From the NCBI GenBank assembly GCA_016180575.1, contig JACPAY010000001.1, positions 64,857 through 128,856 on the forward strand: a DNA stretch of 64,000 nucleotides. The letters are read 5' to 3'. The notes beneath the pieces are model-generated. The model made no database searches. It was not told the origin of the DNA and saw only the letters and a program-made list of their open reading frames with translations. Of the stretch, positions 3,466 to 54,495 are shown piece after piece. Each line of letters opens with the position of its first letter. Within the stretch, counting starts at the first letter, position 1. The stretch is from Candidatus Omnitrophota bacterium (GTDB lineage Bacteria; Omnitrophota; Gorgyraeia; Aquiviventales; Aquiviventaceae). The translations under genes were made by a program, and so were the position numbers.

Positions 3466-4014
3466 TCAGGGGGCCCCTTTCGCGCGGCCGTTCAGCGCCG
3501 CGAGAACCTCGTCGGTGACATCGTAGGCGTCCTGGCCGTAGACCATGGCCTGCCCGTCCAGGATGAGCGAGAACCCGTTGGCCTTGGCGTAGTCCTGCAG
3601 CACCCGCTGGATCTCCTCCAGCAGCCCCTTGGCCACCCCGTCGCGCTCATGGCGCAGGTCCCGCGCCGTGTTGGTGCGGAAGCGCTGCAGCTCGTCCGCC
3701 CGCTCCTCGATCTCCCGGGCCTTGGACTCGCGGGCCTCCGCGCTCAGCAGCTCCAGGCTCTGGCGCATCTTCCGGAGCTCCTCCACGCGGCCCTTGAGCT
3801 CCGCCTCCTTCTGCTTGCCCTTCTTCTCCAGCGCGGCGTCGGAGGCCTGCGTCTTCGCATAGCCGTCGAACACCTTGGCCATGTTCACATAGCCGATCTT
3901 CAGCTCCTCCGCCCTCGCCGTGGGACAGGGGACAGGGGACAGGGGACACGCTGCGAGGATCATGAGGATGAGGATGACGCCGTGGGACCACCCGCGCAAG
4001 ACCGCCTGTCTCAT
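3466..4014 (-). CDS. skp: OmpH/Skp-like periplasmic chaperone
   Basis: 182 aa from ATG 4014. Hydrophobic signal peptide followed by a Lys/Glu/Arg-rich coiled coil. bamA-skp-lpx synteny supports the call. The track ORF 3466..4521 is over-extended. Confidence 0.75.
   Translation of the reverse strand: MRQAVLRGWSHGVILILMILAACPLSPVPCPTARAEELKIGYVNMAKVFDGYAKTQASDAALEKKGKQKEAELKGRVEELRKMRQSLELLSAEARESKAREIEERADELQRFRTNTARDLRHERDGVAKGLLEEIQRVLQDYAKANGFSLILDGQAMVYGQDAYDVTDEVLAALNGRAKGAP
3922..3948. repeat. tandem heptamer GGGGACA x about 4 inside the skp signal-peptide coding region
   Basis: gGGACA GGGGACA GGGGACA GGGGACA on the + strand. It encodes ..CPLSPVPCP.. on the minus strand. Confidence 0.9.
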
Positions 4015-4033
4015 GTCTCCTGTCTCCTGTCTC
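4006..4033. repeat. Family C heptamer array (CTGTCTC x4) at the bamA-skp junction
   Basis: CTGTCTC ATGTCTC CTGTCTC CTGTCTC, which is (GAGACAG)n in gene sense. It contains the bamA stop, GGAG SD-like motifs and the skp ATG. Confidence 0.9.
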
Positions 4034-6344
4034 AGAAACTCCGGCTGATGTTGAAGTGCACCTGCAGCTCGCGTTCCTCGCCGGGATCCAGGTCGCTGAC
4101 GGGCACCCCCAGATCGAGCCGCAGCGGCCCGATGGGCGTGTTCACGCGCACCCCCGCCCCCGCGCCCGCCTTGAACGACTCGCCGAACTCCTTGACGCGC
4201 CGCCAGACGTTGCCGACGTCCAGGAAGACCGATCCCCGGAGGATCGGCCGGCCGCGCTCGTCTTTCAGCAGCGTCACGACCTCCTCCAGCGTCCCCACGA
4301 GCAGCGCCTCGCCGCCGATGGGGTCGTTGGACGCCGGGTCGCGCGGTCCCACGCGCCGCTCCTCGAAGCCCCGGATGGTGCCGGAGCCGCCGCCGAAGAA
4401 CCGCTCGAAGATGGGGACCTCCGACGTGCCCGAATAGGCGTCGACGATCCCGGCGCGGAGGCGGGACTCGAACACCAGGCGGTCCCAGTGGGGGAGGTAG
4501 TGGCTCCCCCCCGCCTGCCACCGGTAGAAGTCCTTGTCGGCCCCGAAGAGCCCGCCCGCCAGATCGGCCGAGCTGAACAGGAACAGGCCGCGGGTCGGGT
4601 CAAAACGGTTGTCCCGATGGTCCCAGGAGATCCCGAGGCCCGCGACGCTGATGGTGTTGCGCCCCTGCTCGGCCTTCAGGTCAGCCGAGGCCTCGGTCAC
4701 CACGTCGGAGATCTCGGTGCGGTAGAGCTGGTAGCTGAGGCTCCCCAGCAGGCCGTCGATGAACTCCCGGCCAAGCCGCAGCCCCGCCCCGCGCTGCTCC
4801 TCCTCGAACGCGAGGCCCAGGTTGCGGCTGCGCAACCGGGTGCGGTTGTACGCGTCGATGCCGAGCGACACCGGGTGGCCGAAGATCCACGGCTCGGTGA
4901 ACGACACGTCGAAGAACCGCCGGACGGTGCCGACCTCCACCCGGAAGCGGAGGTCCTGCCCCGCGCCCGTGAATGTCGGGAAGTTCCGCCAGTCGAAGTT
5001 GCGCTGCTCGAGCTCCACGAGGCCGACGAGGCGATCCACCGAGGAGAACCCGCCGCCGAAGCTGAAGCTGCCGGTCTTGGCCTCCTTGACCTTGACGACC
5101 AGATCCTCGCGGTCGGGCGTCTCGGTCGGCTCCGTCTCCACGCTGACCTCTTCGAAGTACCCCAGGTTGTAGAGCCGGTCGATGGACTTGCGGATCGCAG
5201 CACCGTCGAACCGCTCGCCGGGATAGGCCCGGAGCTCCCGGCGCACGACGACGTCCTTGGTCCGCAGGTTGCCCCGGACCTCGACGCGGTTGATGGACAC
5301 GAGCTCATTCTCGGCGATGCGGTAGGTCAGGTTCACGCGCTTCGTCGCGTCGTCCAGCTGCGGCTCCGGGACGACCTCCGCGTGGATGTAGCCCCGGTCG
5401 CCGTAGTATTGCTTGATGCCCCGCAGGTCCTCCTGCAGCGCCTCCTGGCTGTACACCGCCCCCGGCTTGAGCGTGATGGCCTGCCGGATCTCGCGCTCCG
5501 GAAAGAGCACGGTGCCGGTCAGCGCCACCTGGCCGACCCGATGCTGCAGCCCCTCCGTGATCTTCAGATGGACATAGAGCCCGCGCCCGGCGGCGTCCCG
5601 GTAGACCTCCTGGGTGGCGGCGACGTCCTGGTAGCCGTGCTTCCGGTAGAAGGCCCGCACCCGCTCGAGGTCCTCCTCGAGCACCTGCTCGTTGTAGACC
5701 CCGGAGCGGAACCAGCGCCGGCGCTTCGTCTTGAGCAGCTTCCGGATCCGTCGGTCCGGGAAGGCCTGGTTGCCCTCCACCAGGACGCCGGCGATCCGCA
5801 TGCGGGTCCCCTCCTCGACCAGCAGATAGATGGTCGCCGTGTTGGCTACCTCATCGAGCTGGACGCGCGAGGCGATCTCGCTCTGCGAAAACCCCTTGCG
5901 CGCGTACTCCGCCTTCAGCTGATCGATCCCCTCCTTGACCCTCCGGGGGTCGTACAGCTCGCCCGGACCGACGCCGAACAGCTCAAGGAGCTTGGGCTTG
6001 CCCAGCGCCCGGTTGCCCTCCACCTCGACGGCTGACACCGTCGGCTTCTCGGTGACGACGAACACGAGGCGCAGCCCCTCGGGCGTCTGCTCGACATCGG
6101 CCCGGACGTCGGTGAAGTAGCCGAGCGCGAAGAGGCGCCGGATGTCTTCGCTGACGATCGCGTTCTGATAGGGCGAGCCCGGCTTCGTCCGGACGCGCGC
6201 CAGGACGGTTTCCTTGGCGACCGTCTTCGCGCCGCGGAGCTCCACCGCGACGACCGTTTCGCCCTCCTGGGCGAAGCTGGGGGACGCCGCGAGGCCCATG
6301 CCGCAGAGGAGCAGGGCCAGGCAGCTGCCAGCGGAGCGGCTCAT
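4032..6344 (-). CDS. bamA: outer membrane protein assembly factor BamA
   Basis: 770 aa. Signal peptide (..ASPSFAQEG), POTRA-like N-terminal repeats and a C-terminal beta-barrel ending ..HFNISRSF. Confidence 0.93.
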   Translation of the reverse strand: MSRSAGSCLALLLCGMGLAASPSFAQEGETVVAVELRGAKTVAKETVLARVRTKPGSPYQNAIVSEDIRRLFALGYFTDVRADVEQTPEGLRLVFVVTEKPTVSAVEVEGNRALGKPKLLELFGVGPGELYDPRRVKEGIDQLKAEYARKGFSQSEIASRVQLDEVANTATIYLLVEEGTRMRIAGVLVEGNQAFPDRRIRKLLKTKRRRWFRSGVYNEQVLEEDLERVRAFYRKHGYQDVAATQEVYRDAAGRGLYVHLKITEGLQHRVGQVALTGTVLFPEREIRQAITLKPGAVYSQEALQEDLRGIKQYYGDRGYIHAEVVPEPQLDDATKRVNLTYRIAENELVSINRVEVRGNLRTKDVVVRRELRAYPGERFDGAAIRKSIDRLYNLGYFEEVSVETEPTETPDREDLVVKVKEAKTGSFSFGGGFSSVDRLVGLVELEQRNFDWRNFPTFTGAGQDLRFRVEVGTVRRFFDVSFTEPWIFGHPVSLGIDAYNRTRLRSRNLGLAFEEEQRGAGLRLGREFIDGLLGSLSYQLYRTEISDVVTEASADLKAEQGRNTISVAGLGISWDHRDNRFDPTRGLFLFSSADLAGGLFGADKDFYRWQAGGSHYLPHWDRLVFESRLRAGIVDAYSGTSEVPIFERFFGGGSGTIRGFEERRVGPRDPASNDPIGGEALLVGTLEEVVTLLKDERGRPILRGSVFLDVGNVWRRVKEFGESFKAGAGAGVRVNTPIGPLRLDLGVPVSDLDPGEERELQVHFNISRSF

Positions 6345-7681
6345 TCCCGAGCTGGCGACTCGAAACGCGTATATTCCTTGATGAACGTCAGCTTGACGGT
6401 GTCGGTCGGGCCGTTCCGCTGTTTGGCGATGATCACCTCGGCGGTGCCTCGATTCTCATCGGTCGGGTTGTAGTACTCTTCCCGGAACAGCATCAGCACG
6501 ACATCGGCATCCTGCTCGATGGCCCCGGACTCGCGCAGGTCCGAGAGGCGCGGGCGCCGCAGCTCCTTCTCAGGCGCCCTCGAGAGCTGGCTCACCACCA
6601 TGACGGGAATGCCCAGCTGCCGCGCCAGCGCCTTCAGCCCGCGGGAAATGACCGAAATTTCCTGCTGCCGGTTCTCCGTGAGGGTGGTGGCATCCATCAG
6701 CTGCATGTAGTCAACAATCACCAGCCCGATGTCATGCCGCCGCTTCAGCCGGCGCGCTTTGGCGCGCAGCTCGAGCACCGTCAGGCCCGGGGTGTCATCG
6801 ATGAAGATGGGCGCTTCCGACAGCTTGCCCGCCGCCTTGGTCAGGTTTGGCCAGTCCGCGTTCGACAGCATGCCGGAGCGGACGTTGTGCGCGTTGATCC
6901 GGGCATGCGAGCACAGCATCCGCTGGACCAGGCTCTCCTTCGACATCTCCAGGCTGAAGATCGCCACGGGCTTCTGCTGGACGAGCGCGACGTGCTCCGC
7001 GACGCAGAGGGCAAACGAGCTCTTCCCCATGGCCGGCCGGCCGGCCACCACGATGAAATCAGACGGCTGCAGGCCGGCCAGGTGCTGATCCAGGTCGATG
7101 AACCCGGTGGGGAGGCCGGTGATCATCCCCTTGCGCTGATAGAGGGTGTCGATCATCTCGATGGAGCTCTTGATGATGTCCTTCATCGAGACCGCGTCGC
7201 GCTTGATCTTGCTCGAGGCGATGTCGAAGATCGCCGTCTCGGCTTCGTCGAGCAGGAGATCCGGCTCCTTCGAGCCCTGGTAGGCGTGATCGCCGATCTG
7301 ATCCGACGCCTGGATCAGCCGGCGCAGGATGTGTTTCTCTTTCACGATGTTGCAGTGGTGCTTCACGTTGGCGGGGGTGGCGACGGTCGAGAGCAGCGCC
7401 AGATAGCTCGGCCCCCCCACCTCGTCGAGGCTGCTCTGCTTTTTCAACGCCTCCGTGAGCGTGAGCAGGTCCACCGGAACGTCTTTCTTGTACAGCTCAA
7501 GGATCGCCCGGAAGATTTTCCGATGGGCGGGTTTGTAGAAGGTCTCCTCTTCGAGGATTTCAGCGGCCTGGGTCACGGCGTCTTCCGACAGCAGCATAGC
7601 GCCTAAGACCGCCTGCTCGACCTCGGGGCTGCTTGGGGGGGTGACGCGAAGATCGGCCGTCGTCAATTCATGCTCAGGCAT
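6341..7681 (-). CDS. dnaB: replicative DNA helicase DnaB
   Basis: 446 aa. N-terminal domain (EVEQAVLGAMLL), Walker A GRPAMGKSSF, IVDYMQLM and the ..VVSQLSR motif. Confidence 0.95.
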   Translation of the reverse strand: MPEHELTTADLRVTPPSSPEVEQAVLGAMLLSEDAVTQAAEILEEETFYKPAHRKIFRAILELYKKDVPVDLLTLTEALKKQSSLDEVGGPSYLALLSTVATPANVKHHCNIVKEKHILRRLIQASDQIGDHAYQGSKEPDLLLDEAETAIFDIASSKIKRDAVSMKDIIKSSIEMIDTLYQRKGMITGLPTGFIDLDQHLAGLQPSDFIVVAGRPAMGKSSFALCVAEHVALVQQKPVAIFSLEMSKESLVQRMLCSHARINAHNVRSGMLSNADWPNLTKAAGKLSEAPIFIDDTPGLTVLELRAKARRLKRRHDIGLVIVDYMQLMDATTLTENRQQEISVISRGLKALARQLGIPVMVVSQLSRAPEKELRRPRLSDLRESGAIEQDADVVLMLFREEYYNPTDENRGTAEVIIAKQRNGPTDTVKLTFIKEYTRFESPARE

Positions 7682-9815: not shown

Positions 9816-10610
9816 TTATCCCTTCCCCTCTTTCTTGGGCTCGGACTTCTTGGCCTCGGCGGGCTTCTCGCCCTTGGCGGCCGCCTCGCCTTCCGCCTCG
9901 CCGGCCTCCTCTTTCTTCTCCCGGATGACCTCAGGCTCGGTGACGGGCGCGGCCTCCTCGGCGGCCGGCACCTCGACCTTCGGCGTCTGGACCGAGGCGA
10001 TGGCGCCTTCCGGGTCGCTCGTGATCCGGGCGCCCTTCGGCGCGGCCAGGTCGCGGACGTGGATCGTGTCGCCGATCTTCATGGCGCTGACGTCATGCGC
10101 AACACCCGTGGGGAGGTCGGCGGGCAGACACTCCACCTCCACCTCGCGCAGGAACTGCTCGAGGACGCCGCCGTCCTGCTTCACCCCTGCCGGCTCACCC
10201 TTCAGGATGAGCGGGACCTTCACCTTCAGCCGCTCGGTCAGCACGATGGCATGGAAATCGACATGCACGACATGGCCGTCCACCGGGTCGTGCTGGACCG
10301 CCTGCACGAGCGCCGGCTTCTCCCAGGCCTTGCCACCTGCCTGCGCCGCGCCCTTTGTCGCAGCGGAAGGCGCGGCAGGCAGGTCCTCCAGACGGAGGGT
10401 GACCAGCGCGTGCTCGCCCGCCTTGGCGCGCAGAAACTTCACGAGCTCCCGCTGGCTCACCTCAACACTCATCGGCTCCATGTCCCGGCCGTAGATGACG
10501 CCGGGGACCAGCCCCCCGTGGCGCAGCCGCCTCACCGGGCGCTTGCCCGCCGTCGTCCGGCGCTTCACGGTCAGCTGCTGCTGGTGGGTCGTGCGTGCGG
10601 ATGTTGCCAT
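9816..10610 (-). CDS. rplY: 50S ribosomal protein L25/general stress protein Ctc (long form)
   Basis: 264 aa. Contains RR.G.VPGVIYG and an acidic/Lys-rich C-terminal extension. It sits in the ctc-pth synteny. Confidence 0.9.
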   Translation of the reverse strand: MATSARTTHQQQLTVKRRTTAGKRPVRRLRHGGLVPGVIYGRDMEPMSVEVSQRELVKFLRAKAGEHALVTLRLEDLPAAPSAATKGAAQAGGKAWEKPALVQAVQHDPVDGHVVHVDFHAIVLTERLKVKVPLILKGEPAGVKQDGGVLEQFLREVEVECLPADLPTGVAHDVSAMKIGDTIHVRDLAAPKGARITSDPEGAIASVQTPKVEVPAAEEAAPVTEPEVIREKKEEAGEAEGEAAAKGEKPAEAKKSEPKKEGKG

Positions 10611-11601: not shown

Positions 11602-13149
11602 TTACCGCCTGGTCCTCCGCGCGCGGGGCCGCGTCGCCCGCCGCGGGGCGGCCTTCGCGCGGACCGGGCGTCCCTCGACTCGCTTCGCTCGCTCGGGACG
11701 GTGCCGAGCGGCTGGCGCGCGGCGGCGGGCCCCCGCGCCAGCGCGCTTCGCGGCCCTCTTGACCTTCCGGATGGCTCGCCCCGCCGTCGGCGGGGCGGGC
11801 TTGGCCTTCGCCTGACCGTCCTTCCGGCGCGCGGGCGACGCGCGCTCCGCCTTCAGCGGCGGCTTCGCCCCTGCCGCCGGCTCGCGGTGGTCCGTCGGGC
11901 GCGCGGCCAGCGGGCGGGCCGGCACCCCGGCCACCACGCCCTTTGGCGGCACATCGTGCGCCTTGGTGACGACGCAGCCGGCCCCGGTCACCGCCCCGGC
12001 GCCGATCTTGACCGGCGCGACGAGGACCGAATCGGAGCCGATGAAGGCGCCTTTGCCGATGTGGGTCTGGTGCTTGTCCTTGCCGTCGTAGTTCGCGGTG
12101 ACGGTGCCGGCGCCGATGTTGACGTCATCCTCGATGACCGCGTCGCCCAGATAGCTGAAGTGGTTGATGCGCGTGCGGGCGCCGACCTTCGTCCGGACCA
12201 GCTCCGCGAAGTTGCCGACCCGCACCGCCTCGCCCAGCGCGACCCCGGTGCGCAGCCGGGCGAAGGGCCCGATCTCGCACCGCTTGCCGATGGACACCCC
12301 CGTCTGGATCGCCGTATAGGGGTGGATGACGGTGTCGGCCCCGATGCTCACGCCGTAGTCGATGGAGGTGGTGGCAGGATCCTCGATGGTGACGCCGTTG
12401 TGGAGGTGCATCTCGATGATCCGCTGGCGGATGACCCCGATCGCCCGGGCCAGCTCCGAGCGCGAGTTGATCCCGAGCGCCTCGGCGATCTCCTCGACGC
12501 GCGCCGCCTGGATCTTGGTCCCCTCCTGCCGGGCCAGGTGCGAGACGATGTCGGTGAGATAGAGCTCGTGCTTGGCGGCGCTCGGCTTCACCGTCGCCAG
12601 CGCGGCCAGCAGCGCCGGGGCGCTGCAGACGAGCGGCCCGACGTTGATCTCGCGGAGCGCCCGCTGGGCGGCGTTGGCCTCCGCCTCCTCCACGATGCCG
12701 CTGATGAGGCCGCTCTCGTTGCGGAGGATGCGGCCGTAGCCGGTCGGGTCGGCCAGGTGCGCGGTCAGGAGGCTGCAGGTGGCGCCCGTCTTGAAGTGCG
12801 TCTCGATGAGCCGCTGGACCGTCGTGCGGCGCAGCAGCGGGGTGTCGGCGTAGAGGACCAGGACCGCCCCGGACCCGCTCAGCAGCTTCTTCGCTGCGGC
12901 GACCGCGTCCCCCGTGCCGAGCCGCTTGCCCTGGACGACGACGCGCGCCTCGTGGGGGAGCTGGGCCTTCACGTCCTCGGCGCCGTGGCCCAGCACGACG
13001 ATGGGCTGCTTGACCCCGGACAATGCCGCCAGGTCCAGGGCGTACGCGATCATCGGCCGGCCGCAGATCCCGTGCAGCACCTTCGGCCGGTCCGACTTCA
13101 TCCGCGTGCCTTCCCCGGCCGCCAAGATGACCGCCTGCAGGTTTCTCAT
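11602..13149 (-). CDS. glmU: bifunctional GlcNAc-1-P uridyltransferase / GlcN-1-P acetyltransferase GlmU with ~60-aa extra basic C-terminal tail
   Basis: 515 aa. AVILAAGEGTRMKS N-terminus and a hexapeptide-repeat C-domain. This is followed by a Lys/Arg/Ala/Pro-rich tail (..KAKPAPPTAGRAIRKVKRAAKRAG..RRATRPRARRTRR) running up to 3 nt before prs. Confidence 0.93.
   Translation of the reverse strand: MRNLQAVILAAGEGTRMKSDRPKVLHGICGRPMIAYALDLAALSGVKQPIVVLGHGAEDVKAQLPHEARVVVQGKRLGTGDAVAAAKKLLSGSGAVLVLYADTPLLRRTTVQRLIETHFKTGATCSLLTAHLADPTGYGRILRNESGLISGIVEEAEANAAQRALREINVGPLVCSAPALLAALATVKPSAAKHELYLTDIVSHLARQEGTKIQAARVEEIAEALGINSRSELARAIGVIRQRIIEMHLHNGVTIEDPATTSIDYGVSIGADTVIHPYTAIQTGVSIGKRCEIGPFARLRTGVALGEAVRVGNFAELVRTKVGARTRINHFSYLGDAVIEDDVNIGAGTVTANYDGKDKHQTHIGKGAFIGSDSVLVAPVKIGAGAVTGAGCVVTKAHDVPPKGVVAGVPARPLAARPTDHREPAAGAKPPLKAERASPARRKDGQAKAKPAPPTAGRAIRKVKRAAKRAGAGARRRAPAARHRPERAKRVEGRPVRAKAAPRRATRPRARRTRR
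11670..11699. repeat. Family D-related unit inside the glmU tail coding region
   Basis: GTCCCTCGACTCGCTTCGCTCGCTCGGGAC shares the CCCTCGAC...CTCGGGAC ends with the msrA element. Confidence 0.5.
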
Positions 13150-13196
13150 CGTCTGCTCATCCTCGTTGTTCTGTCCGATTCCTCGCTCACGGAGCG

Positions 13197-13267
13197 CTGG
13201 GGAGCCAGGACTCGAACCTGGACGTGGAGCTTCAAAGGCTCCTGTGCTGCCGTTACACTACTCCCCA
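13197..13267 (-). tRNA. tRNA-Gln (anticodon UUG)
   Basis: Hand-folded cloverleaf: UGGGGAG/CUCCCCA acceptor stem (U1-A72, as in Gln tRNAs), GUGU/GCAC D stem, GGAGC-CUUUGAA-GCUCC anticodon arm and CCAGG-UUCGAGU-CCUGG T arm. The discriminator is G and CCA is not encoded. Ends are good to about 1-2 nt. Confidence 0.9.
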
Positions 13268-18542: not shown

Positions 18543-20132
18543 ATGTTCAAGCGGTTGATTGTTTCGCACCGGATGCGCCGGCGCGTCAGCTGGCTCATCG
18601 CGGCCATCCTCATCCTGCCCTTCATCTTCTTCTTCCACGCCACCGGCCGAGCGCCGTCCCGCGGTCCGGGCGGGACGGCCGGGATCGTCTTCGGCAAGCC
18701 CATCGACTGGGACACGTTCCAGGACGAGCGGCGCTCGGTCCAGCGCCAGTTCGAAGAGCAGTTTGCCGCCCAGTTCGACGCGCTGGGCGAGCTGCTGCAG
18801 CCGATGATCACCGGGGCCGCCTGGGACCGCCTCATCGTGCTCGAAGAAGCCCGCCGGAGGCGGCTGCAGGTGGATGACGCGGAGGTGGCGGCATCCATCC
18901 GGCAGTTGCCCGAGCTCCAGGAGGAGGGCCGGTTCCATCCTGAGCGGTACCATCGGCTCCTGCAGCTTTCCGGGACCACCCCGCAGGCGTTCGAATCACG
19001 GATCCGCCGGGGCCTGCTCATCGAGAAGCTCGTCAGCTCCATCCGGAACGCGGTGACGGTCAGCGACGAGGAGGTGCGCGCCGCCTACCGCAAGGCGCGC
19101 GAGGCTCGCACCGCGTCGCTCGTCCTCTTCGATCCCGCCGCGGCCGCCGAGGAGGCCGCCGCAGCGCTCACCGAGGAGGAGCTGCGCGCCGCCTACGGCG
19201 CCCAGCTTGACACGCTGCGGGTCCCCGAGCAGCTGCGCCTCGAGTACGCCGGGCTCACGCGCGAGGAGATGAGCGCCTCGCTCCAGCTCACCGACGAGGA
19301 CATCCGCGGATTCTACGACACCCACCCGGACCAGTTTGCCCGGAGCGACGGGACGCTGAAGCCCTATGAGGAGGTCCGGGAGGAGGCCCGCCGGCAGCTC
19401 CTGGAGGAGCGGGCGCGCCAGCGGCTGGCCACGCTTGCCGTGGACCTGGAGGAGGACCTCAAGGTCCCGCTCCGGTTCGAAGAGATCATCGCGGCGCGAG
19501 GGCTCTCGCGGCACGCGGCCGGCCCGTTTCCCGCCGGGGCGTCCCACGCGGCCGGCGTGCCGGACCCGGCGATCCTCCAGGCAACCGAGGGGCTGGCCGA
19601 GGGCCGGGTGAGCGGCGTGATTGACACGGGCAGCGCCGTGTATCTTGCCCGGATCACGCAGCGCCTCCCGCCCCGCCTGCCGCCGTTCGAGGAGGCGCGC
19701 GGCGAGGTGCGCTCGACGCTGATCAGGGAGCGCGCGCGGGCCAAGGTCCGGGCGGATGCCGAGGCGTTCCGGAACCGAGTGGCGAATGAGCCGAGGCTCC
19801 GCTTTGAAGAAGCGGCCCTGGCGGCGGGCATCGCCCCCATGCCGGTGGAGGTGCGCCGGGGCCAGCCCTTCGACCCCATCGGCTACCAGGAAGCGCTCAA
19901 CGAGGCGGCCTTCGCGGTCCCGCTGGGCGGCCTCACCGAGGTGTTCGACACCCCGCGCGGGTTCGCCCTCCTCCGGCCGGAAACGCACCTGCCAGCGGAT
20001 GAGTCCCTGTTCGCCGAGGAGGCCCAGACCTTCCGGCCGCAGGTGGAAACCGAACGGCGCAACGCCCGCTTGGCGGAGTGGCTGGAGGAGGTCCGGGCCC
20101 GCGCGAAGCTGCGCAGCTTCGTGGAGGACTAG
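18543..20132 (+). CDS. PpiD/SurA-N-like periplasmic chaperone (peptidyl-prolyl isomerase-like)
   Basis: 529 aa. N-terminal membrane anchor (VSWLIAAILILPFIFFF), a SurA-N-like helical region and a parvulin-like region near the C-terminus. The assignment rests on general architecture only. Confidence 0.6.
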   Translation: MFKRLIVSHRMRRRVSWLIAAILILPFIFFFHATGRAPSRGPGGTAGIVFGKPIDWDTFQDERRSVQRQFEEQFAAQFDALGELLQPMITGAAWDRLIVLEEARRRRLQVDDAEVAASIRQLPELQEEGRFHPERYHRLLQLSGTTPQAFESRIRRGLLIEKLVSSIRNAVTVSDEEVRAAYRKAREARTASLVLFDPAAAAEEAAAALTEEELRAAYGAQLDTLRVPEQLRLEYAGLTREEMSASLQLTDEDIRGFYDTHPDQFARSDGTLKPYEEVREEARRQLLEERARQRLATLAVDLEEDLKVPLRFEEIIAARGLSRHAAGPFPAGASHAAGVPDPAILQATEGLAEGRVSGVIDTGSAVYLARITQRLPPRLPPFEEARGEVRSTLIRERARAKVRADAEAFRNRVANEPRLRFEEAALAAGIAPMPVEVRRGQPFDPIGYQEALNEAAFAVPLGGLTEVFDTPRGFALLRPETHLPADESLFAEEAQTFRPQVETERRNARLAEWLEEVRARAKLRSFVED

Positions 20133-20479
20133 AGCGCGGCCGACCAGGTGTGGTCGGAGAAGTCGAACGGCTTGGTGACGTAGCCGGCCGCCCCGAGGAA
20201 GTACGCCTCGCGGCGCAGCTCATCCCGGTCGAGGGCCGTCACCATGATGATCCGCGCCGTCGGGTGGAGCGCCCTGACGCGCTTGAGGAGCTCAAGCCCG
20301 GAGAGGCCGGGCAACAGGATGTCGAGCAGGATGACGTCCGGCGAGGTACCGGCTTGGAGCCGCTCCAGCGCCTCCTCCGCGCTGAAGGCCGACGCGACCG
20401 CGAAGCCCTTGGCGCTGAAGAACTGCTCGAGGCAGTCGCAGATATCGCGCTCGTCCTCCACGATGAGCATCTGCCGCAT
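20129..20479 (-). CDS. single-domain response regulator (CheY-like receiver)
   Basis: 116 aa: MLIVEDE..., LLDILLPGLSGLELL, IIMVTA and GYVTKPF. Confidence 0.85.
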   Translation of the reverse strand: MRQMLIVEDERDICDCLEQFFSAKGFAVASAFSAEEALERLQAGTSPDVILLDILLPGLSGLELLKRVRALHPTARIIMVTALDRDELRREAYFLGAAGYVTKPFDFSDHTWSAAL

Positions 20480-20531: not shown

Positions 20532-20695
20532 AAAATGGGCTGCTGAAGCCTTCGCTTCGGCAGCCCACCCTTCCGGTGCGACGCACCGGACGCGCGGCTT
20601 TGCGTCCCCCGCTCACGCGGGGTTTGCCTTTCTCGGCGTCCGCGTTGTCTGGTTATAGTCTGCCTGATGCCGGGCGGGATTGGCAAGGGGCGGGG

Positions 20696-22964: not shown

Positions 22965-23437
22965 TGGACGCCGAGCGACTTCGCCACGCGCTCGACCGCC
23001 TCGCGGATCTCCGCAAAGCAGACCTCGTACACCTCGAGCGGCTTGCCGATGGGGTCCGGGATGCCCGCGGGGCCCGCCACCTCGCCCGGCCCGCGGCCGA
23101 AGGGTTTCAAGAGGTGCACCTTCCCGGCGGCGGCCGGCTCGCGCCGGATGACCTCCTCGGCCTGAAACGGCTCCATGACGAACACGAGGTCCGCCGCCCG
23201 GATCATGTCGGGGGTGAGGACCCTCGCCCGGTGGCCCGAGCAATCCACGCCGGCCTCCAGCAGCACGCGCTGCGTCTCCCGGGTCGCGCCCATCCCATCG
23301 ATGGCGAAGACGCCCGCGGATTCGACCTGGACCGCCTCCCTGCCGGCTCGCTGGAGCCGCTGCGTCAGCAGCCCTTCCGCCATGACGCTGCGGCAGCTGT
23401 TGCCGGTGCAGACAAAGAGAATCCGCTTCACATTCAT
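22961..23437 (-). CDS. low-molecular-weight protein phosphatase (YwlE-like; Tyr/Arg phosphatase family)
   Basis: 158 aa from ATG 23437. Contains RILFVCTGNSCRS (the CX5R P-loop) and DPIG near the C-terminus. It occupies the ywlE position in tsaC-ywlE-rpiB-glyA synteny. Confidence 0.85.
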   Translation of the reverse strand: MNVKRILFVCTGNSCRSVMAEGLLTQRLQRAGREAVQVESAGVFAIDGMGATRETQRVLLEAGVDCSGHRARVLTPDMIRAADLVFVMEPFQAEEVIRREPAAAGKVHLLKPFGRGPGEVAGPAGIPDPIGKPLEVYEVCFAEIREAVERVAKSLGVQ

Positions 23438-23442
23438 CAGCT

Positions 23443-23491
23443 GAGACAGGAGACAAGAGACGGGAGACAGGTGGGGGCTGTCTCCTGTCTC
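23443..23491. repeat. Family C heptamer palindrome at the tsaC/ywlE-like junction
   Basis: GAGACAG GAGACAA GAGACGG GAGACAG gtggggg CTGTCTC CTGTCTC. The tsaC stop lies in the last unit. Confidence 0.9.
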
Positions 23492-24113
23492 ATGTTGTTC
23501 CGATGATTGCCATGATGGCGTCTTTTGGGATCGCCCCTGCCCGGCGGATCTCGACGCGCCCGTCGCGCACCTCCACGACGGTCGATTCGCGCCCCAGGCG
23601 GGTCGGCCCGCCGTCGAGGATGCAGTCGATCGAGCCGTCCAGGGCGGCGAGCACCTCGCTCGCATCCGTCGGCGGCGGCGAGCCCGACCGGTTGGCGCTG
23701 GGGGCCACGACGGGGACCCCGCACGCCTGGAGAAACACCCGCGCGATGGGGTGGTCCGGCAGCCGGAAGCCGACGGTCTTGCCGTCCGCTCCCGGCATCA
23801 CGATGGTCAGGGGGCCTGGCCAGAACCGTTTCATGAGCGTCGCGGCCAGCGGCGGCACCGAGGCCACGAAGGGGCCCACCTGATCGGGCGCATGGATGTG
23901 CAGCGAATACGGTTTGTCGGGCGGCCGCCCCTTGACCCGGTCCAGCCGCTCGATGGCCGCGGGATTGGCGGCATCGGCCCCGAGGCCGTAGACCGTCTCG
24001 GTCGGGAACGCCACCAGCCCGCCGCCGCGCAGGATCTTCGCGGCCTCCGCGATCAGCGCCGGATCCGGCGCATCACCCGCCACCCCGAAGATCCGCGGCG
24101 TGCTAGAAGTCAT
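23490..24113 (-). CDS. tsaC: L-threonylcarbamoyladenylate synthase (TsaC/YrdC/Sua5 family)
   Basis: 207 aa from ATG 24113 with VAFPTETVYGLGADA, KGRP..KP and SANRSG. The 266-aa track ORF is over-extended. Confidence 0.9.
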   Translation of the reverse strand: MTSSTPRIFGVAGDAPDPALIAEAAKILRGGGLVAFPTETVYGLGADAANPAAIERLDRVKGRPPDKPYSLHIHAPDQVGPFVASVPPLAATLMKRFWPGPLTIVMPGADGKTVGFRLPDHPIARVFLQACGVPVVAPSANRSGSPPPTDASEVLAALDGSIDCILDGGPTRLGRESTVVEVRDGRVEIRRAGAIPKDAIMAIIGTT

Positions 24114-27692: not shown

Positions 27693-29108
27693 TCAGCAGC
27701 GGCCCTGGCCCGCGTGCTTCTCCAGCGCGAACTTGTCGCCCTCCCCGCCGAAGGGGATCGGGTAGGTGCCGCTCCAGCAGGCGGTGCAGTAGTCGGCGGG
27801 CCGCCCGACCGCCTTGAGCATCCCGTCCAGCGAGAGGTAGCCGAGGCTCTCCACACCGATGAAGGTGCGGATCTCATCGAGCGAGAGCCGGTTGGCGATC
27901 AGCTCCCGCTTGCTCGGGAAGTCGATGCCATAGAAGCAGGCGTGCTTCGTCGGCGGACAGCTCACCCGCATGTGGATCGCCTTCGCGCCGGCCTCGCGCA
28001 GGCTCTTCACGCGGGCGCGGGTCGTGTTCCCGCGCACGATGGAGTCATCGACGATGACGAGCCGCTTGCCCTTGATGATCTCCCTGATCGGGTTGAACTT
28101 GACGCGGATCTTCAGGTCGCGGATCTCCTGCGCCGGCTGGATGAACGTCCGTCCGACGTAGTGGTTGCGGATCATCCCGAGCGCGAAGGGGATCTTCGAT
28201 TCCAGGCTGTAGCCGAGCGCCGCGAAGTTGCCCGAGTCCGGGATGGGCATGACGAGGTCCGCCTCCACCGGGTGCTCGCGGGCGAGCTGACGGCCCAGCT
28301 TGACCCGCACCGCCTGGACGCTCTCGCCGAAAATGTGCGAATCGGGCCGGGCGAAGTAGACGTGCTCGAAGAGGCAGTGGGAGCGGCCCGTCGGCTGGTC
28401 CTTGAAGGGGCGCAGCGAGCGCAGGCCCCCGGCGCCGATGCACACGGCCTCGCCGGGCTCCACCTCCCGCACGAACTTCGCGCCGATGATGTCGAGCGCG
28501 CACGTCTCCGAGGCCAGCACGTGCGTCTTGTTGAGCCGGCCGAGCACGAGCGGCCGAAACCCGTTCGGGTCCCGGACGCCGACGAGCTCGCGCTCCGTCA
28601 GGAAGAGGAGCGTGAAGGCCCCCTTCAGCAGCCGGAGGCACTCCACCAGGTCGTCCTGGAACTCCTTGTTCGTCGCGCGCGCCAGCAGGTGCAGGATGAT
28701 CTCGCTGTCCACCGTCGTCTGGAAGATGGAGCCGTTGGCCTCCAGCTGCTGCCGCAGCTCGTAGGCGTTGACGAGGTTGCCGTTGTGCGCCACGGCGATC
28801 GAGCCCTTCGCGTAGGTGACGACGAGCGGCTGCGAGTTCTTCAGGGTGCTGGAGCCGGTCGTGGAGTAGCGGGTATGCCCGATGGCCGTCCGGCCCGGGA
28901 GCCCGTGCAGCGTCTGCTCATGGAACACCTCGGAGACGAGGCCCATGCCCTTGTGGGTGTGCATCGCCTTCCCGTCATAGGTGACGATGCCGGCGGCCTC
29001 TTCGCCCCGGTGCTGGAGCGAGTAGAGCCCAAGGTACGTCAGGCGCGCCGCGTCCCGGTGGCCGTAGATCCCGAAGAGCCCGCAGGAGTGCTTGACCGCT
29101 TCGTCCAT
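27693..29108 (-). CDS. purF: amidophosphoribosyltransferase
   Basis: 471 aa from ATG 29108, with an ATGA overlap on the purL stop. Propeptide then CGLFGIYG, plus the PRTase loop VIVDDSIVRGNT. Confidence 0.95.
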   Translation of the reverse strand: MDEAVKHSCGLFGIYGHRDAARLTYLGLYSLQHRGEEAAGIVTYDGKAMHTHKGMGLVSEVFHEQTLHGLPGRTAIGHTRYSTTGSSTLKNSQPLVVTYAKGSIAVAHNGNLVNAYELRQQLEANGSIFQTTVDSEIILHLLARATNKEFQDDLVECLRLLKGAFTLLFLTERELVGVRDPNGFRPLVLGRLNKTHVLASETCALDIIGAKFVREVEPGEAVCIGAGGLRSLRPFKDQPTGRSHCLFEHVYFARPDSHIFGESVQAVRVKLGRQLAREHPVEADLVMPIPDSGNFAALGYSLESKIPFALGMIRNHYVGRTFIQPAQEIRDLKIRVKFNPIREIIKGKRLVIVDDSIVRGNTTRARVKSLREAGAKAIHMRVSCPPTKHACFYGIDFPSKRELIANRLSLDEIRTFIGVESLGYLSLDGMLKAVGRPADYCTACWSGTYPIPFGGEGDKFALEKHAGQGRC

Positions 29109-31429
29109 CAGCGCCGCAGCCCCCACGCGCGCGGAAGCCCGGTCCGCCAGGCCTCGCTCAGCTCGTCGACCGGCACATCGATCCATGAGTCGAGGCGCAG
29201 ATGCGCGCCGCCCACCCGGCCCAGGACCGCCATCGGCACGTTGTGGCGCGCGGCCAGGTGCTCGACCCGCTCCACGTGGTACCGCGCGCAGCTGGCGACG
29301 ATGCGGCCCGCCGACTCGCCGAAGAGCAGCGCATCGGTCCGTATTCGCTGACGGCTGCCCGCCCCGGCCCTCGTGATGGGCGGGCCGGGGAAGGCTGACG
29401 GCTGAAGGCTGACCACGGCGCCGAGGAGCCGCGCGGGCTCCATGATGCAGCATTCGGCCAGCGCGACCGCCAGCCCCCCTTCGGAGCAGTCGTGCGCCGA
29501 CTTAAGCCACCCCTGGGAGGCCAGCGCCAGCATCAGCTGCTGCAGCGCCGACTCGCCCGCCAGGTCAACCCGCGGGGGTTTGCCCGCCTTGCGCTTGTGG
29601 ATCATGGCCAGGTACTCGCTGCCGCCCAACTCCTCCCGCGTCTCGCCGAGGAGGATGACGGCGTCGCCCTCATCCTTAAAGTTCGCCGTAATCGGTCCTG
29701 GGACAGGAGACGGGGGACGTGAGACATGTCTCCTGTCTCTTGTCTCCTGTCTCGGTTCAATCAGGCCGATCATGCCGATCACCGGCGTCGGATCGATCGC
29801 GCCCCGCGGCCCCTCGTTGTAGAAACTCACGTTGCCGCCGGTCACGGGCGTCTTGAACGCCCGGCAGGCGTCACTGATCCCGCGGACGCACGCCTTGAAC
29901 TGCCACATGACCGCCGGGTCCTGCGGGCTGCCGAAGTTGAGGCAGTCGGTGACGGCGAGCGGCCGCGCCCCGACGCAGACCAGGTTGCGCGCCGCCTCGG
30001 CCACCGCCGCCTTGCCGCCCTCGTAGGGGTCGAGGAAACAGAAGCGGCCGTTGCCGTCGGTGGTCGCCGCCAGCCACGTGCCGAGCGCCCTGAGCCGCAG
30101 GACGGCGGCATCCGCCCGTCCGGGGAGGACCGCGGTGTTCGTCTGGACCATGTGGTCGTACTGCTCGAAGACGGCGGATTTATCCGCGATCGTCGGCGAA
30201 CCCAGCAGCGTCAGGAGCACGGCGCCGTAATCCTTCGGCAGCGGCAGCCGAGCCAGCAGCAGCCGCTGCGCCCGGGCGAGCCCCGCCGGGCGCCGGACCG
30301 GCCGGCGGTACACCGGCGCCTCGTCGGTGAGCGCCGAGGCCGGGATCTCCGCCGCGACGGCAGAGCCGTCCCGCACCCGCATCAGGCCGTCGCGCGTCAC
30401 CCGCCCGATCTCCACCGCGTTGAGCCCCCATTTGGCGAAGAGCCGCTTGACCCGCTCCTCGCGGCCGCGCTTCGCGATGAGCAGCATGCGCTCCTGCGAC
30501 TCGGAGAGCATCACCTCATACGGGGTCATCCCCTCCGCGCGGCGCGGCACGCGCGCGACATCGATCTCGATCCCCACGCCCCCGCGCGCGGCGGTCTCTG
30601 AGGTCGAGCAGGTCAGGCCGGCCGCGCCCATGTCCTGGATGCCGACGACGTCGCCGGTCGCCAGCGCCTCGAGCGTCGCCTCGATCAGACATTTCTCGGT
30701 GAACGGGTCGCCGATCTGGACCGCCGGCCGGTCCGCATCGCCGTCGGCCAGCTCGCGCGAGGCGAACGAGGCGCCGCCCAGGCCGTCGCGGCCCGTCGAG
30801 GAGCCGACGTACAGGACCGGGTTGCCGACCCCGCCGGCCGCCGCGCGCGCGATCCGCCGCGCCGGCACCAGGCCGATGCACATCACGTTGACGAGCGGGT
30901 TGTCCCGGTAGGCCGGGTCGAAGGCGATCTCGCCGCCCACCGTCGGGACGCCAACCGCGTTCCCGTAGTCGCTGATCCCTTTCACCACGCCCTCCAGGAG
31001 AAACCGGCTGCGGGGCTCCTCCAGCGGACCGAAGCGCAGAGAGTCCAAGAGCGCGATGGGCCTGGCCCCCATGGTGAAGATGTCGCGGATGATGCCGCCC
31101 ACCCCGGTCGCGGCCCCCTGCACCGGCTCCACCGCGGAGGGGTGGTTGTGGCTCTCGCATTTGAACACGACCGCCCAGCCCCCGCCGATGTCCACCACGC
31201 CGGCGTTCTCCTTCCCGGCCGGCACGAGGATGCGCGGGCCCTTCGTCGGGAACGTCTTGAGGTACGGCCGGGAGCTGCCGTAGCTGCAATGCTCCGAATA
31301 CATGACGCCGAAGATCCCGACCTCCGTCAGCGTCGGCTGGCGGCCCAGCGTCTTGACGATGTGCCGGTACGTCTCGTCCGTGAGGTTGTGCGACTTCGCG
31401 ACCCGCTTCAGCAGCTGCGCGTCAGGCAT
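29108..31429 (-). CDS. purL: phosphoribosylformylglycinamidine synthase subunit PurL (FGAM synthase II)
   Basis: 773 aa with SEHCSY, GGIIRDI and the duplicated PurM-like domains. It contains an in-frame insertion encoded by repeat C3. Confidence 0.95.
29700..29755. repeat. Family C heptamer palindrome inserted in frame in purL
   Basis: GGGACAG GAGACGG GGGACGT GAGACAT | GTCTCCT GTCTCTT GTCTCCT GTCTCGG. It is translated as ..[20 protein letters not shown].. Confidence 0.9.
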
Positions 31430-51426: not shown

Positions 51427-51491
51427 CCGGTATCAGATACCAACCCCCGATTGGTATCAGATACCGACTTCTACTTGGTATCTGATACCGG
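51427..51491. repeat. Family A, three-unit copy A5
   Basis: Units at 51427-51441 (centre A), 51453-51465 (centre A) and 51477-51491 (centre T), between the PNP gene and mtnA. Confidence 0.9.
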
Positions 51492-53926: not shown

Positions 53927-54495
53927 GCGGGCGCCCCGCGTCGACCGCGCGCGCGACGTGCGAGGCGAGCAGCGCGGCGACCTGCCCGAGATCGAACGGC
54001 CACACGTACTCGATGGCGACCTGCGGGTGGGCGCGGCGCAGCGCCTCAAGCGCCTGCGGGATGTCCCGCTCGGCATGGACCCCGCCGGGCGTCAGCATCG
54101 AGGGGATGACCAGCACGCGGGTCGCCCCGTCCCGGACGACCCCCTCGACCGCCTCGGCGATCGACGGCCGGCAGAACTCGTTGTAGCCCACGGCGAGCCG
54201 GTCGGTGGGAAGCAGCGGCCGCAGTGTTTCCGCCAGCCGCTCGAGCCCGGTCCGGTACGGGTCGTTGCCGGGATGGCGCGGCCAGTTGCGGATGGAGGCA
54301 TCCAGCTCCGCCGCCCGCTCCTCCGCGCGATGGGGCGCGCTCCCGTTGGGTGGGACGGCCGCCTGGCGCCACTCGAGACTCATGAGCTCGCCCACGAGCT
54401 GCGGCGGGCAGTCGGTGGCCGGGGCGCCGTGGCCGATCAGGACGACGGCCAGTTGTCAGGACGACGGCCAGTTGAGCACGTGCTGGGGAGGACAT
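53919..54495 (-). pseudogene. cbiX: CbiX/SirB-type sirohydrochlorin chelatase, frameshifted by a 19-bp tandem duplication
   Basis: ATG 54495 opens MSSPARAQLAVVL. A perfect duplication of TCAGGACGACGGCCAGTTG (54437-54455 and 54456-54474) then shifts the frame and creates an in-frame TGA. Deleting one copy restores MSSPARAQLAVVLIGHGAPATDCPPQLVGELMSLEWRQ..., continuous with ORF 53919..54395. Confidence 0.7.
54437..54474. repeat. perfect 19-bp tandem duplication
   Basis: TCAGGACGACGGCCAGTTG occurs twice, head to tail. Confidence 0.95.

Follow-up and report, generated by a model that had tools for sequence, protein, structure and literature searches.

A heptamer-built palindrome read in frame in the purL gene of a Candidatus Omnitrophota bacterium

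In a stretch of 64,000 nucleotides from a Candidatus Omnitrophota bacterium (GenBank assembly GCA_016180575.1, contig JACPAY010000001.1, positions 64,857 to 128,856 of the forward strand) the gene purL contains, within its reading frame, a 56-base palindrome consisting of heptamers. The whole stretch is called the window in the following, and positions are counted from its first base; compared loci carry L numbers and compared PurL proteins P numbers. We lean towards the interpretation that a foldback made from a heptanucleotide microsatellite has spread within the genome, and that the palindrome is one of its dispersed copies, which lies in frame and would be carried in PurL as a translated passenger. 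The element combines the in-frame behaviour of Rickettsia palindromic elements (RPEs) with the substance of a heptanucleotide microsatellite.

The palindrome occupies positions 29700-29755 and reads on the plus strand GGGACAG GAGACGG GGGACGT GAGACA|TGTCTC CTGTCTC TTGTCTC CTGTCTC GG, that is, four units of the GAGACAG type joined head-to-head to four inverted units. The repeat finder delimits two arms of 25 nt (29702-29726 and 29727-29751) which follow each other without any spacer and are 80% complementary, with mismatches at five of the 25 positions. Only one long open reading frame (ORF) runs across it, from 29108 to 31429 on the minus strand, with 773 amino acids. This host gene is purL, encoding the PurL subunit of phosphoribosylformylglycinamidine (FGAM) synthase: its product is 100% identical to PurL P0001 of a metagenome-assembled genome named 'Candidatus Omnitrophica bacterium' at NCBI, possesses the Pfam domains FGAR-AT_linker, AIRS and AIRS_C (PF18072/PF00586/PF02769), and is encoded in the operon order purS-purQ-purL-purF, which is syntenic in L001. 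On the coding strand the palindrome is read as CCG AGA CAG GAG ACA AGA GAC AGG AGA CAT GTC TCA CGT CCC CCG TCT CCT GTC CCA GGA. These 20 in-frame codons (29696-29755, minus strand) specify residues 559-578, directly after the conserved VIGMIGLIE, and comprise a purine-rich 5' arm GAGACAG GAGACAA GAGACAG GAGACA (29727-29753) and a pyrimidine-rich 3' arm TGTCTC ACGTCCC CCGTCTC CTGTCCC (29700-29726). Sequence, ORF and translation agree here with the first-pass annotation, made from the letters of the window, which had described four plus four inverted GAGACAG-like units in frame in purL; the 20-residue translation and the conserved segments given on both sides of it are exactly right.

In the window, which has 69% G+C, the 13-mer GAGACAGGAGACA occurs 15 times if up to two mismatches are allowed, compared with 1.47 expected occurrences, and none of 100 shuffles reached this number. 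A phase-free scan for three consecutive units finds exactly three loci in the 64 kb, with 95 hit windows; when the window was shuffled ten times at the mononucleotide level, 0-3 such hits were left. Tandem Repeats Finder reports a period of 7 with 3.9 copies at 29727-29753, and the same period at 3922-3948, 4007-4034 and 23443-23471. The purL arm has the three or more head-to-tail 7-nt units that define a heptanucleotide simple sequence repeat (SSR). Like an RPE, the whole is a palindromic repeat lying in frame in a protein-coding gene, and the intact ORF suggests that it is translated.

The two further loci in the window represent sister copies of the purL element. Sister copy A is located on the minus strand at the border of bamA and skp. 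Its purine-rich arm GAGACAG GAGACAG GAGACAT GAGACAG (4006-4034) overlaps the bamA stop codon (4032-4034), contains the start codon of skp (ATG, 4014-4012) and supplies repeated AGGAG Shine-Dalgarno motifs for skp. Its pyrimidine-rich arm, CTGTCCC repeated four times (3922-3949), lies about 57 nt downstream of the purine arm, directly after the skp signal peptide and in frame, and codes for C-P-L-S-P-V-P-C-P including a lipobox-like Cys. It is an additional intragenic copy of the kind that the first-pass annotation had proposed to look for, found within the 64-kb window. The same bamA-skp arrangement is present in the independent JGI metagenome contig L160 (L160 1680-1860). Sister copy B (23443-23491, minus strand) forms a hairpin between a sua5/tsaC-like gene and a low-molecular-weight (LMW) phosphatase gene. 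It reads GAGACAG GAGACAG CCCCCAC CTGTCTC CCGTCTC TTGTCTC CTGTCTC, with the stop codon TGA of sua5 inside the first unit. The 5' arm of the purL palindrome shares 26 of 27 bases with the arm of copy B at 23443-23469 (plus strand), including the variant GAGACAA in second position. Copies at 4006-4033 and 23443-23491 had already been assigned to the same family and called intergenic; the family assignment is correct, but the copies are not simply intergenic, as copy A overlaps the bamA stop and the skp start and copy B the sua5 stop.

In skp the Cys after the signal peptide and a Pro/Ser linker thus both come from the pyrimidine arm; the locus could be a hairpin sequestering the Shine-Dalgarno sequence or an exaptation of repeat-derived codons. 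At L247 6512-6606 the N-terminus annotated for a PEGA-domain protein is made up of a palindrome of similar kind.

In 164.6 kb of Omnitrophota DNA we counted 27 arrays of period 7 and none after shuffling. In the same DNA the periods 8-12 gave no array, period 6 gave four and period 5 three, so that period 7 is over-represented against other periods and against chance, as is typical for heptanucleotide SSRs. Heptamer arrays dominate among the repeats of the examined group of Omnitrophota genomes; they occur in intergenic spacers, at the ends of genes and in protein loops that tolerate them. Moreover, the heptamer family found in the PurL gene of a genome recurs elsewhere in the same genome: that of L247 at 6512-6606, that of L248 at 6298-6361, that of L125 both in a radical SAM gene, where it keeps the frame (2199-2265), and at 19850-19880, and that of L123 at 13077-13171, in the same sua5/LMWPc spacer that contains copy B in the window. 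Genome-specific families at shared sites imply that sequence is transferred within a genome.

The GAGACAG unit itself is not lineage-specific. Scanning the GTDB representative genomes for (GAGACAG)n yielded at least 120 stretches, which among the matches listed belong to Okeania, Trichodesmium, Microcystis (where they are abundant), Acidobacteriota, Verrucomicrobiota, Planctomycetota, Chloroflexota and others; no Omnitrophota label occurs among these GTDB matches. In a scan of metagenomes the matches listed likewise come from many phyla, and they include L160 with the orthologous bamA-skp locus. In Okeania hirsuta (L021, L035, L037, L087, L095, L109, L112) (GGAGACA)4-6 is found inside a longer conserved repeat, TTGAAGAAGGAGACA...GGAGGAAAATTACATGGGGATTC...GTGGGGTATTAAACCCACAAAGAAAATGATAA, which recurs on many contigs and has the appearance of a composite mobile element.

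Comparison of PurL orthologues at the junction where the palindrome lies gives a twofold picture. In the nearest relatives the linker has four codons versus 20 in the window, namely GAA|TCC GGA ATG GGA|CCG in P0003 (L001) and GAA|GGC GGC GCG GAA|CCG in P0002 (L002), and the PurL of Thermus thermophilus (3VIU) has a connection of eight residues at the same point. Among 113 Omnitrophota-type PurLs, 59 have at least 10 amino acids at this junction and 46 have 3-5. The earlier statement that orthologues possess only a short linker is thus valid for the nearest relatives and for 3VIU, and not for the phylum. At the DNA level the longer linkers consist of heptamers as well. L123 carries (GAATGCG)5 in register with the conserved Glu codon; L126 carries (GAATGYG)5 and L001 a two-unit remnant, the gap between the two being exactly three units (21 nt or 7 amino acids). 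L125 has (GGGCTCA)3..(GCCCAGA)3, and L124 has the same with a nested GC-rich hairpin and with degenerate, interrupted arms. L247 has (GAGACCA)4-5, nine nucleotides and (GTCTCAK)4, starting at the Glu codon, and L248 has (GCCGAGG)3..(GCCTCCG)3. Variation by whole units among relatives, a further mark of SSRs, is therefore seen for GAATGNG (two units in L001, five in L126 and L123), which is a different heptamer from GAGACAG, and such whole-unit differences show that slippage occurs.

In a neighbour-joining tree the window protein groups with P0003, P0002 and P0004, and the junction is occupied in this group by GAATGYG or by nothing; the GAGACAG palindrome is consequently a derived, lineage-specific state. 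The insertion had been called recent, which holds relative to the split from P0003 and no further; between its two arms, 5 of 25 positions have already diverged. The comparison indicates that the junction has either been hit again and again or been occupied for a long time, and that it is not the target of a unique recent hit. An insertion homologous at the protein level, which would have spoken against the idea of an insertion altogether, is strictly speaking not present in the orthologues, as the other inserts are unrelated in sequence.

These data bear directly on a purely local origin, according to which a proto-repeat at the PurL junction grew by slippage and a snap-back error then produced the inverted arm. 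The plain direct repeats of L123, L126 and L001, in the register of the Glu codon and differing by exactly three units between relatives, speak for such a process, and the spacer-free purL palindrome with its perfectly symmetric centre GAGACA|TGTCTC resembles a product of snap-back synthesis. In addition, P0003 contains a 17-residue insert SGRRPERSRGAAVLRLR at about residue 447 (L001 11340-11430, PurL residues ~447-477) which is built from local flanking copies. Unit and order of variants, however, agree with other loci of the same genome (the 26 of 27 bases shared with copy B), the PurL array of each examined genome belongs to the family that this genome also has at its other loci, and at the junction another heptamer, GAATGYG, is found in the sister lineages, which argues that GAGACAG did not grow from local sequence. 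We therefore consider a purely local origin quite improbable. The insert of P0003 is flanked by duplicated AAVLRLR, and its inverted and direct copies of adjacent sequence would be the signature of a local template-switch duplication.

Further peculiarities of the PurL family were noticed during this comparison. Many annotated PurLs (P0004-P0029) show N-terminal 'extensions' of 20-70 amino acids, for instance ECGMRNAECGM...IPNSEFRIPNS. They correspond to heptamer palindromes in the purQ-purL spacer (L124 9991-10083) which are read through as they are free of stop codons, and are probably artefacts of gene calling. Inteins are present in P0020, P0057, P0062 and P0067 (PF14528/PF14890), which are about 1260-1280 amino acids long; these inteins sit elsewhere in the protein and are unrelated to the palindrome, so that an intein can be dismissed as its identity. 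A free-standing LAGLIDADG_2 gene is located between purQ and purL at L247 9058-9915.

According to the interpretation we favour, copying of a dispersed microsatellite foldback, a short tandem array of the purine-rich 7-mer GAGACAG would have been joined head-to-head to a complementary array, and this foldback would have taken the place of a short linker, or of a GAATGYG array that stood there before, where the second AIRS domain of PurL meets the second AIRS_C domain. Arrays may have been copied within the genome through template switching or gene conversion, in addition to slippage; the GA of the conserved Glu codon possibly served as the priming site, and a dedicated transposase would not have taken part. 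Tandem GAGACAG or CTGTCTC is free of stop codons in all six frames. The insert may have survived due to this property, to an added length that is a multiple of three, and to its position in a presumably disordered loop between two well-packed strands. The result would be a hydrophilic, proline- and arginine-rich loop, a passenger in that it would have no role in catalysis.

The departures of the 3' arm from the perfect complement are mostly T-to-C. By these substitutions, presumably later ones, Cys, Leu and Leu would have given way to Arg, Pro and Pro, and the mRNA hairpin would have been weakened. Such an amelioration, suiting an exposed loop, may be due to selection; GC-biased drift is the alternative cause. 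Purging of stop codons was also considered as the cause of mismatches between arms. It fits the pair GGGCTCA/GCCCAGA, of which the perfect complement contains TGA, yet the same form is found in the intergenic copy at L124 18818. As, by our estimate, most 7-mers in a genome of 69% GC are free of stop codons anyway, the evidence for stop purging is weak.

We mapped the insert onto an AlphaFold2 model of the window PurL, calculated from an alignment of 33 sequences (mean predicted local distance difference test, pLDDT, 85; predicted template modelling score, pTM, 0.89). Values of pLDDT below 50 are restricted to residues 213-237, 562-574 and 681-693. The first of these regions is conserved in sequence, while the peptide of the palindrome (562-574) and residues 681-693 coincide with the two sites at which the family varies most in length. 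In the model the insert is placed between the confidently predicted strands 548-557 and 590-594, and its site is predicted to be a disordered, permissive loop. This agrees with the earlier suggestion that the palindrome is tolerated in a loop, for which mapping on a structure had been recommended: the model gives a low-confidence loop, and 3VIU has its short connection at the same point.

The second variable loop of the window PurL (residues ~674-696; 29343-29410, minus strand), recognized by its repeats, by alignment and by low pLDDT, contains a heptamer array too, AGCCTTC AGCCGTC AGCCTTC ... AGCCGTC, which is broken by a GC-rich hairpin of 33 nt, CCCGGCCCGCCCATCACGAGGGCCGGGGCGGGC, coding for 11 amino acids. 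Segments resembling 'PG.P..RAGAG' are present in P0004, P0022 and P0028, and one is nested in the palindrome at the first site of P0015 (L124); this recurrence suggests a second small palindromic family. In the window a query for the hairpin family, GGGCCGGGGCGGGCAG, gave 16 matches with 10.5 expected, and thus no enrichment.

Other repeats of the window are a 24-bp tandem repeat, GGTATCAGATACCGACCCCCAATT, in 2.6 copies between two genes (51429-51490) and a perfect 19-bp repeat, TCAGGACGACGGCCAGTTG, in two copies (54437-54474). The ORF of ribosomal protein L9 (7685-8323, minus strand) has about 65 residues ahead of its L9_N domain, and in the ORF at 9816-10610 (minus strand) the match to the L25 domain covers 107 residues for a profile of 82 positions. 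These extra residues may represent further insertions or mis-set start codons.

Several observations weigh against copying of a microsatellite foldback. In L001 (17146-17149) and L124 (17808-17811) sua5 and the LMW-phosphatase gene share a single ATGA as their overlap, with no insert. In the window (23435-23492, minus strand) a heptamer hairpin of 52 nt lies between two clean copies of ATGA, 56 nt or eight heptamer lengths having been added, and because ATGA stands on each side both the sua5 stop and the phosphatase start are kept. This pair looks like a 4-bp target duplication. The purL copy has ACCGA (5 bp) on both sides; no duplication is evident for L247. Such flanking repeats look like target-site duplications and would favour a staggered cut made by an enzyme, and as the source genome was sampled over 64 kb, a transposase acting in trans may lie elsewhere. 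Furthermore, comparison of the window with L160 shows that the arms of copy A have changed less than the enclosed signal-peptide sequence, which has a 23-nt indel, and this hints at a function for at least some members of the family. The purine-first order of the arms across unrelated heptamers, described below, is not predicted by slippage and gene conversion. Finally, the neutrality of the insert in PurL and its translation are both inferred.

The doubled ATGA and the flanking ACCGA are what would be expected of a non-autonomous mobile element of the miniature inverted-repeat transposable element (MITE), REPIN or foldback-transposon type, with heptamer arrays as terminal inverted repeats, a transposase encoded elsewhere and short target-site duplications. 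Genome-specific families spread over several loci would fit such an element, as would a fixed order of arms, given by the terminal inverted repeats. Terminal inverted repeats are indeed present, in the form that the whole element consists of two inverted arms, which are arrays rather than defined termini. The putative duplications, however, are unequal in length, and both end in the GA with which a unit starts. A true ACCGA duplication would leave an ancestral linker of a single amino acid, shorter than in any of the 113 orthologues. Number of units, order of variants and spacer (0 to 170 nt) vary freely among the copies, and one arm order for unrelated heptamers is unexpected for independent transposon families. 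Pfam scans of the 30 window proteins identified housekeeping families only and no transposase or reverse transcriptase. All in all we regard a mobile element, the main rival of the favoured interpretation, as rather unlikely. The word mobile in the earlier designation 'mobile or recombinogenic' is not supported: no transposase among these 30 proteins, no conserved full-length unit, and flanking repeats that are short and ambiguous.

The hairpin itself is significantly stable in comparison with shuffled sequences. The RNA of the purL palindrome folds with -30.2 kcal/mol in sense (z -4.05) and with -43.3 kcal/mol in antisense orientation (z -5.65), the latter being stronger because the T-to-C changes turn all arm mismatches into G.U pairs on the antisense strand. 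Together with the retention of some insert at the junction in over half of the orthologues, the conserved arms of copy A around a diverged signal peptide, and the intergenic members located exactly at stop and start codons, this could point to a selected function, either of an mRNA hairpin (slowing of ribosomes, purL-purF expression, RNA processing) or of a functional surface loop, for instance in PurL-PurQ-PurS assembly. We judge this very improbable for the purL element. Between lineages the inserts are related neither as peptide nor as unit, and some are direct repeats without a hairpin; the nearest relatives and all outgroups lack the insert; the arms are decaying, being 80% complementary in the window and degenerate and interrupted in L124; and the peptide is predicted to be disordered. 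Rfam at gathering thresholds gave no match at the three palindrome loci. Its matches in the window are a tRNA (13197-13267, minus strand) and a c-di-GMP-I riboswitch (20556-20638, minus strand; 58.4 bits with a gathering threshold of 35) upstream of an ORF of 116 amino acids (20129-20479, minus strand).

A palindrome known from a single contig, which is the case for this exact PurL sequence, raises the question of an assembly or library artefact such as a hairpin chimera or reads running into the Nextera mosaic end CTGTCTCTTATACACATCT. The unit CTGTCTC followed by TT corresponds to the first nine bases of this mosaic end. An artefact is nevertheless barely conceivable, and the mosaic end can be ruled out: neither TATAAGAG nor any other adapter sequence is found at the site, the frame is kept, the substitutions in the arms change codons sensibly, an independent JGI assembly contains copy A as well, and seven independent assemblies have analogous arrays at this very site of PurL, so that the same family and the same sites recur independently. 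We also considered and rejected programmed translational bypass as in T4 gene 60. CCG codons do flank the insert, but it is open and in frame, with no stop codon after the first CCG, and bypassing it would leave a linker of one amino acid, shorter than that of any orthologue.

Among known systems the RPEs are the obvious parallel. They too are short palindromic repeats, present in many copies per genome, often in frame in housekeeping genes where the peptide is tolerated, and, like the heptamer foldbacks, without an identified transposase (PMC10969869). RPEs, however, are about 100-150 bp long, follow a family consensus, contain no tandem 7-mers and are found in Rickettsia only, whereas the purL element has 56 bp, consists of 7-mers only and comes from Omnitrophota. 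In a heptamer foldback a microsatellite array is joined to its own complement, the number of copies and their variants change from locus to locus, and the same protein site is used again across the phylum by different units. Compared by description, the purL element is not a member of an RPE family on account of its size, composition and host.

Heptanucleotide repeats are described as the most abundant class of long microsatellites in many bacteria, with polymerase slippage as the proposed cause (PMC4679880 and PMC4692102, both of which cite Mrazek 2007). The heptanucleotide SSRs treated there (the cyanobacterial short tandemly repeated repetitive (STRR) sequences, the long SSRs of Mrazek 2007, GGGNATC of Xanthomonas and Nostoc, TAACTGA of Beggiatoaceae) are likewise dispersed tandem 7-mers of 2-10 units. 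They are also over-represented against other periods, lie mostly at gene boundaries and share the same unit between distant phyla (PMC4679880, PMC4692102). The cases described are direct repeats and under-represented within genes, with one inverted set among 170 for TAACTGA (PMC4679880, PMC4692102). The purL array differs in being joined head-to-head with its complement, in lying inside an essential enzyme and in its fixed arm order. Our literature search found no palindromic versions of heptamer repeats and nothing specific on heptamer palindromes of Omnitrophota, and the phylum-wide pattern of foldbacks, of which the window purL is not a unique case, appears to be undescribed.

MITEs, repetitive extragenic palindromic (REP) sequences and REPINs, and Foldback (FB) transposons share with the heptamer foldbacks the hairpin-capable inverted arms, the dispersed copies and the possible short flanking duplications. 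The FB elements of Drosophila have inverted termini made of short tandem repeats in variable number. The heptamer foldbacks differ from all of these in having no conserved termini, arms and spacers of free length, and no transposase among the 30 window proteins. REP and REPIN sequences are defined as imperfect extragenic palindromes of 20-40 bp with a GTAG or CGTC head and an associated RAYT transposase (PMC3733652). We rejected this class, since the consensus units GAGACAG and CTGTCTC have neither head, the copies are partly intragenic and no Y1 transposase was seen among the 30 window proteins.

Bidirectional intrinsic terminators, composed of A-tract, hairpin and T-tract, are similar to the foldbacks in being purine-rich and then pyrimidine-rich on both strands, and intergenic foldbacks stand directly after stop codons just as terminators do. 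Many foldbacks, in contrast, lie between co-transcribed genes or within genes, where termination would be harmful. An intrinsic terminator was rejected for the copies in the window, as their hairpins are not followed by a U-run; the following sequences are AGGACCGAUU, AGCUGAUGAAUG and ACGGCGAGG.

The order of the arms is a regular feature of the foldbacks. We determined it for the three copies of the window, for L123, L124, L125, L247 and L248, and for 240 loci from the scans. Among the matches listed, the purine- and G-rich arm comes first and the pyrimidine-rich arm second in 32 of 35 inverted heptamer pairs, at all loci and in all heptamer families; in an independent metagenome set, again among the matches listed, the inverted units are downstream in 27 arrays and upstream in none. 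Hairpin potential alone does not predict this order, and we found no explanation for a fixed arm order in the literature. Candidate causes are a terminator-like need for a pyrimidine-rich 3' arm, extension of 3' ends by G-rich sequence at a break, and fold-back priming that is specific for one strand.

Because the arm order is universal, holding for either strand, for unrelated heptamers and for different phyla alike, and the 4-bp duplication at copy B is clean, the foldbacks can also be read as the footprint of an undescribed process in which a staggered break is filled in, the 3' ends are extended with G-rich 7-mers and the ends are then joined. The extension would be the work of a reiterative polymerase or of a reverse transcriptase, similar to the healing of telomeres, and the PurL loops would record repeated events of breaking and healing. 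We think of this as a long shot. In a further reading the foldbacks would be a class of bidirectional RNA hairpin signals built from microsatellites, and purine-first order would reflect the need for a weak hybrid between pyrimidine RNA and DNA.

If the copying of microsatellite foldbacks is confirmed, the dynamics of microsatellites, and not transposons alone, write new peptide segments into essential enzymes. The same structural loops would be hit repeatedly across the phylum, with PurL offering natural 'loop insertion experiments' in 59 of 113 orthologues. As the arrays are free of stop codons, they inflate ORF predictions, for example by the annotated N-terminal 'extensions' of PurL. The fixed arm order is a simple and testable regularity. 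Heptamer arrays would, furthermore, be a source of new features at gene boundaries and for protein targeting, such as ribosome-binding sites, start and stop codons or, as in skp, a lipobox-like Cys with its linker.

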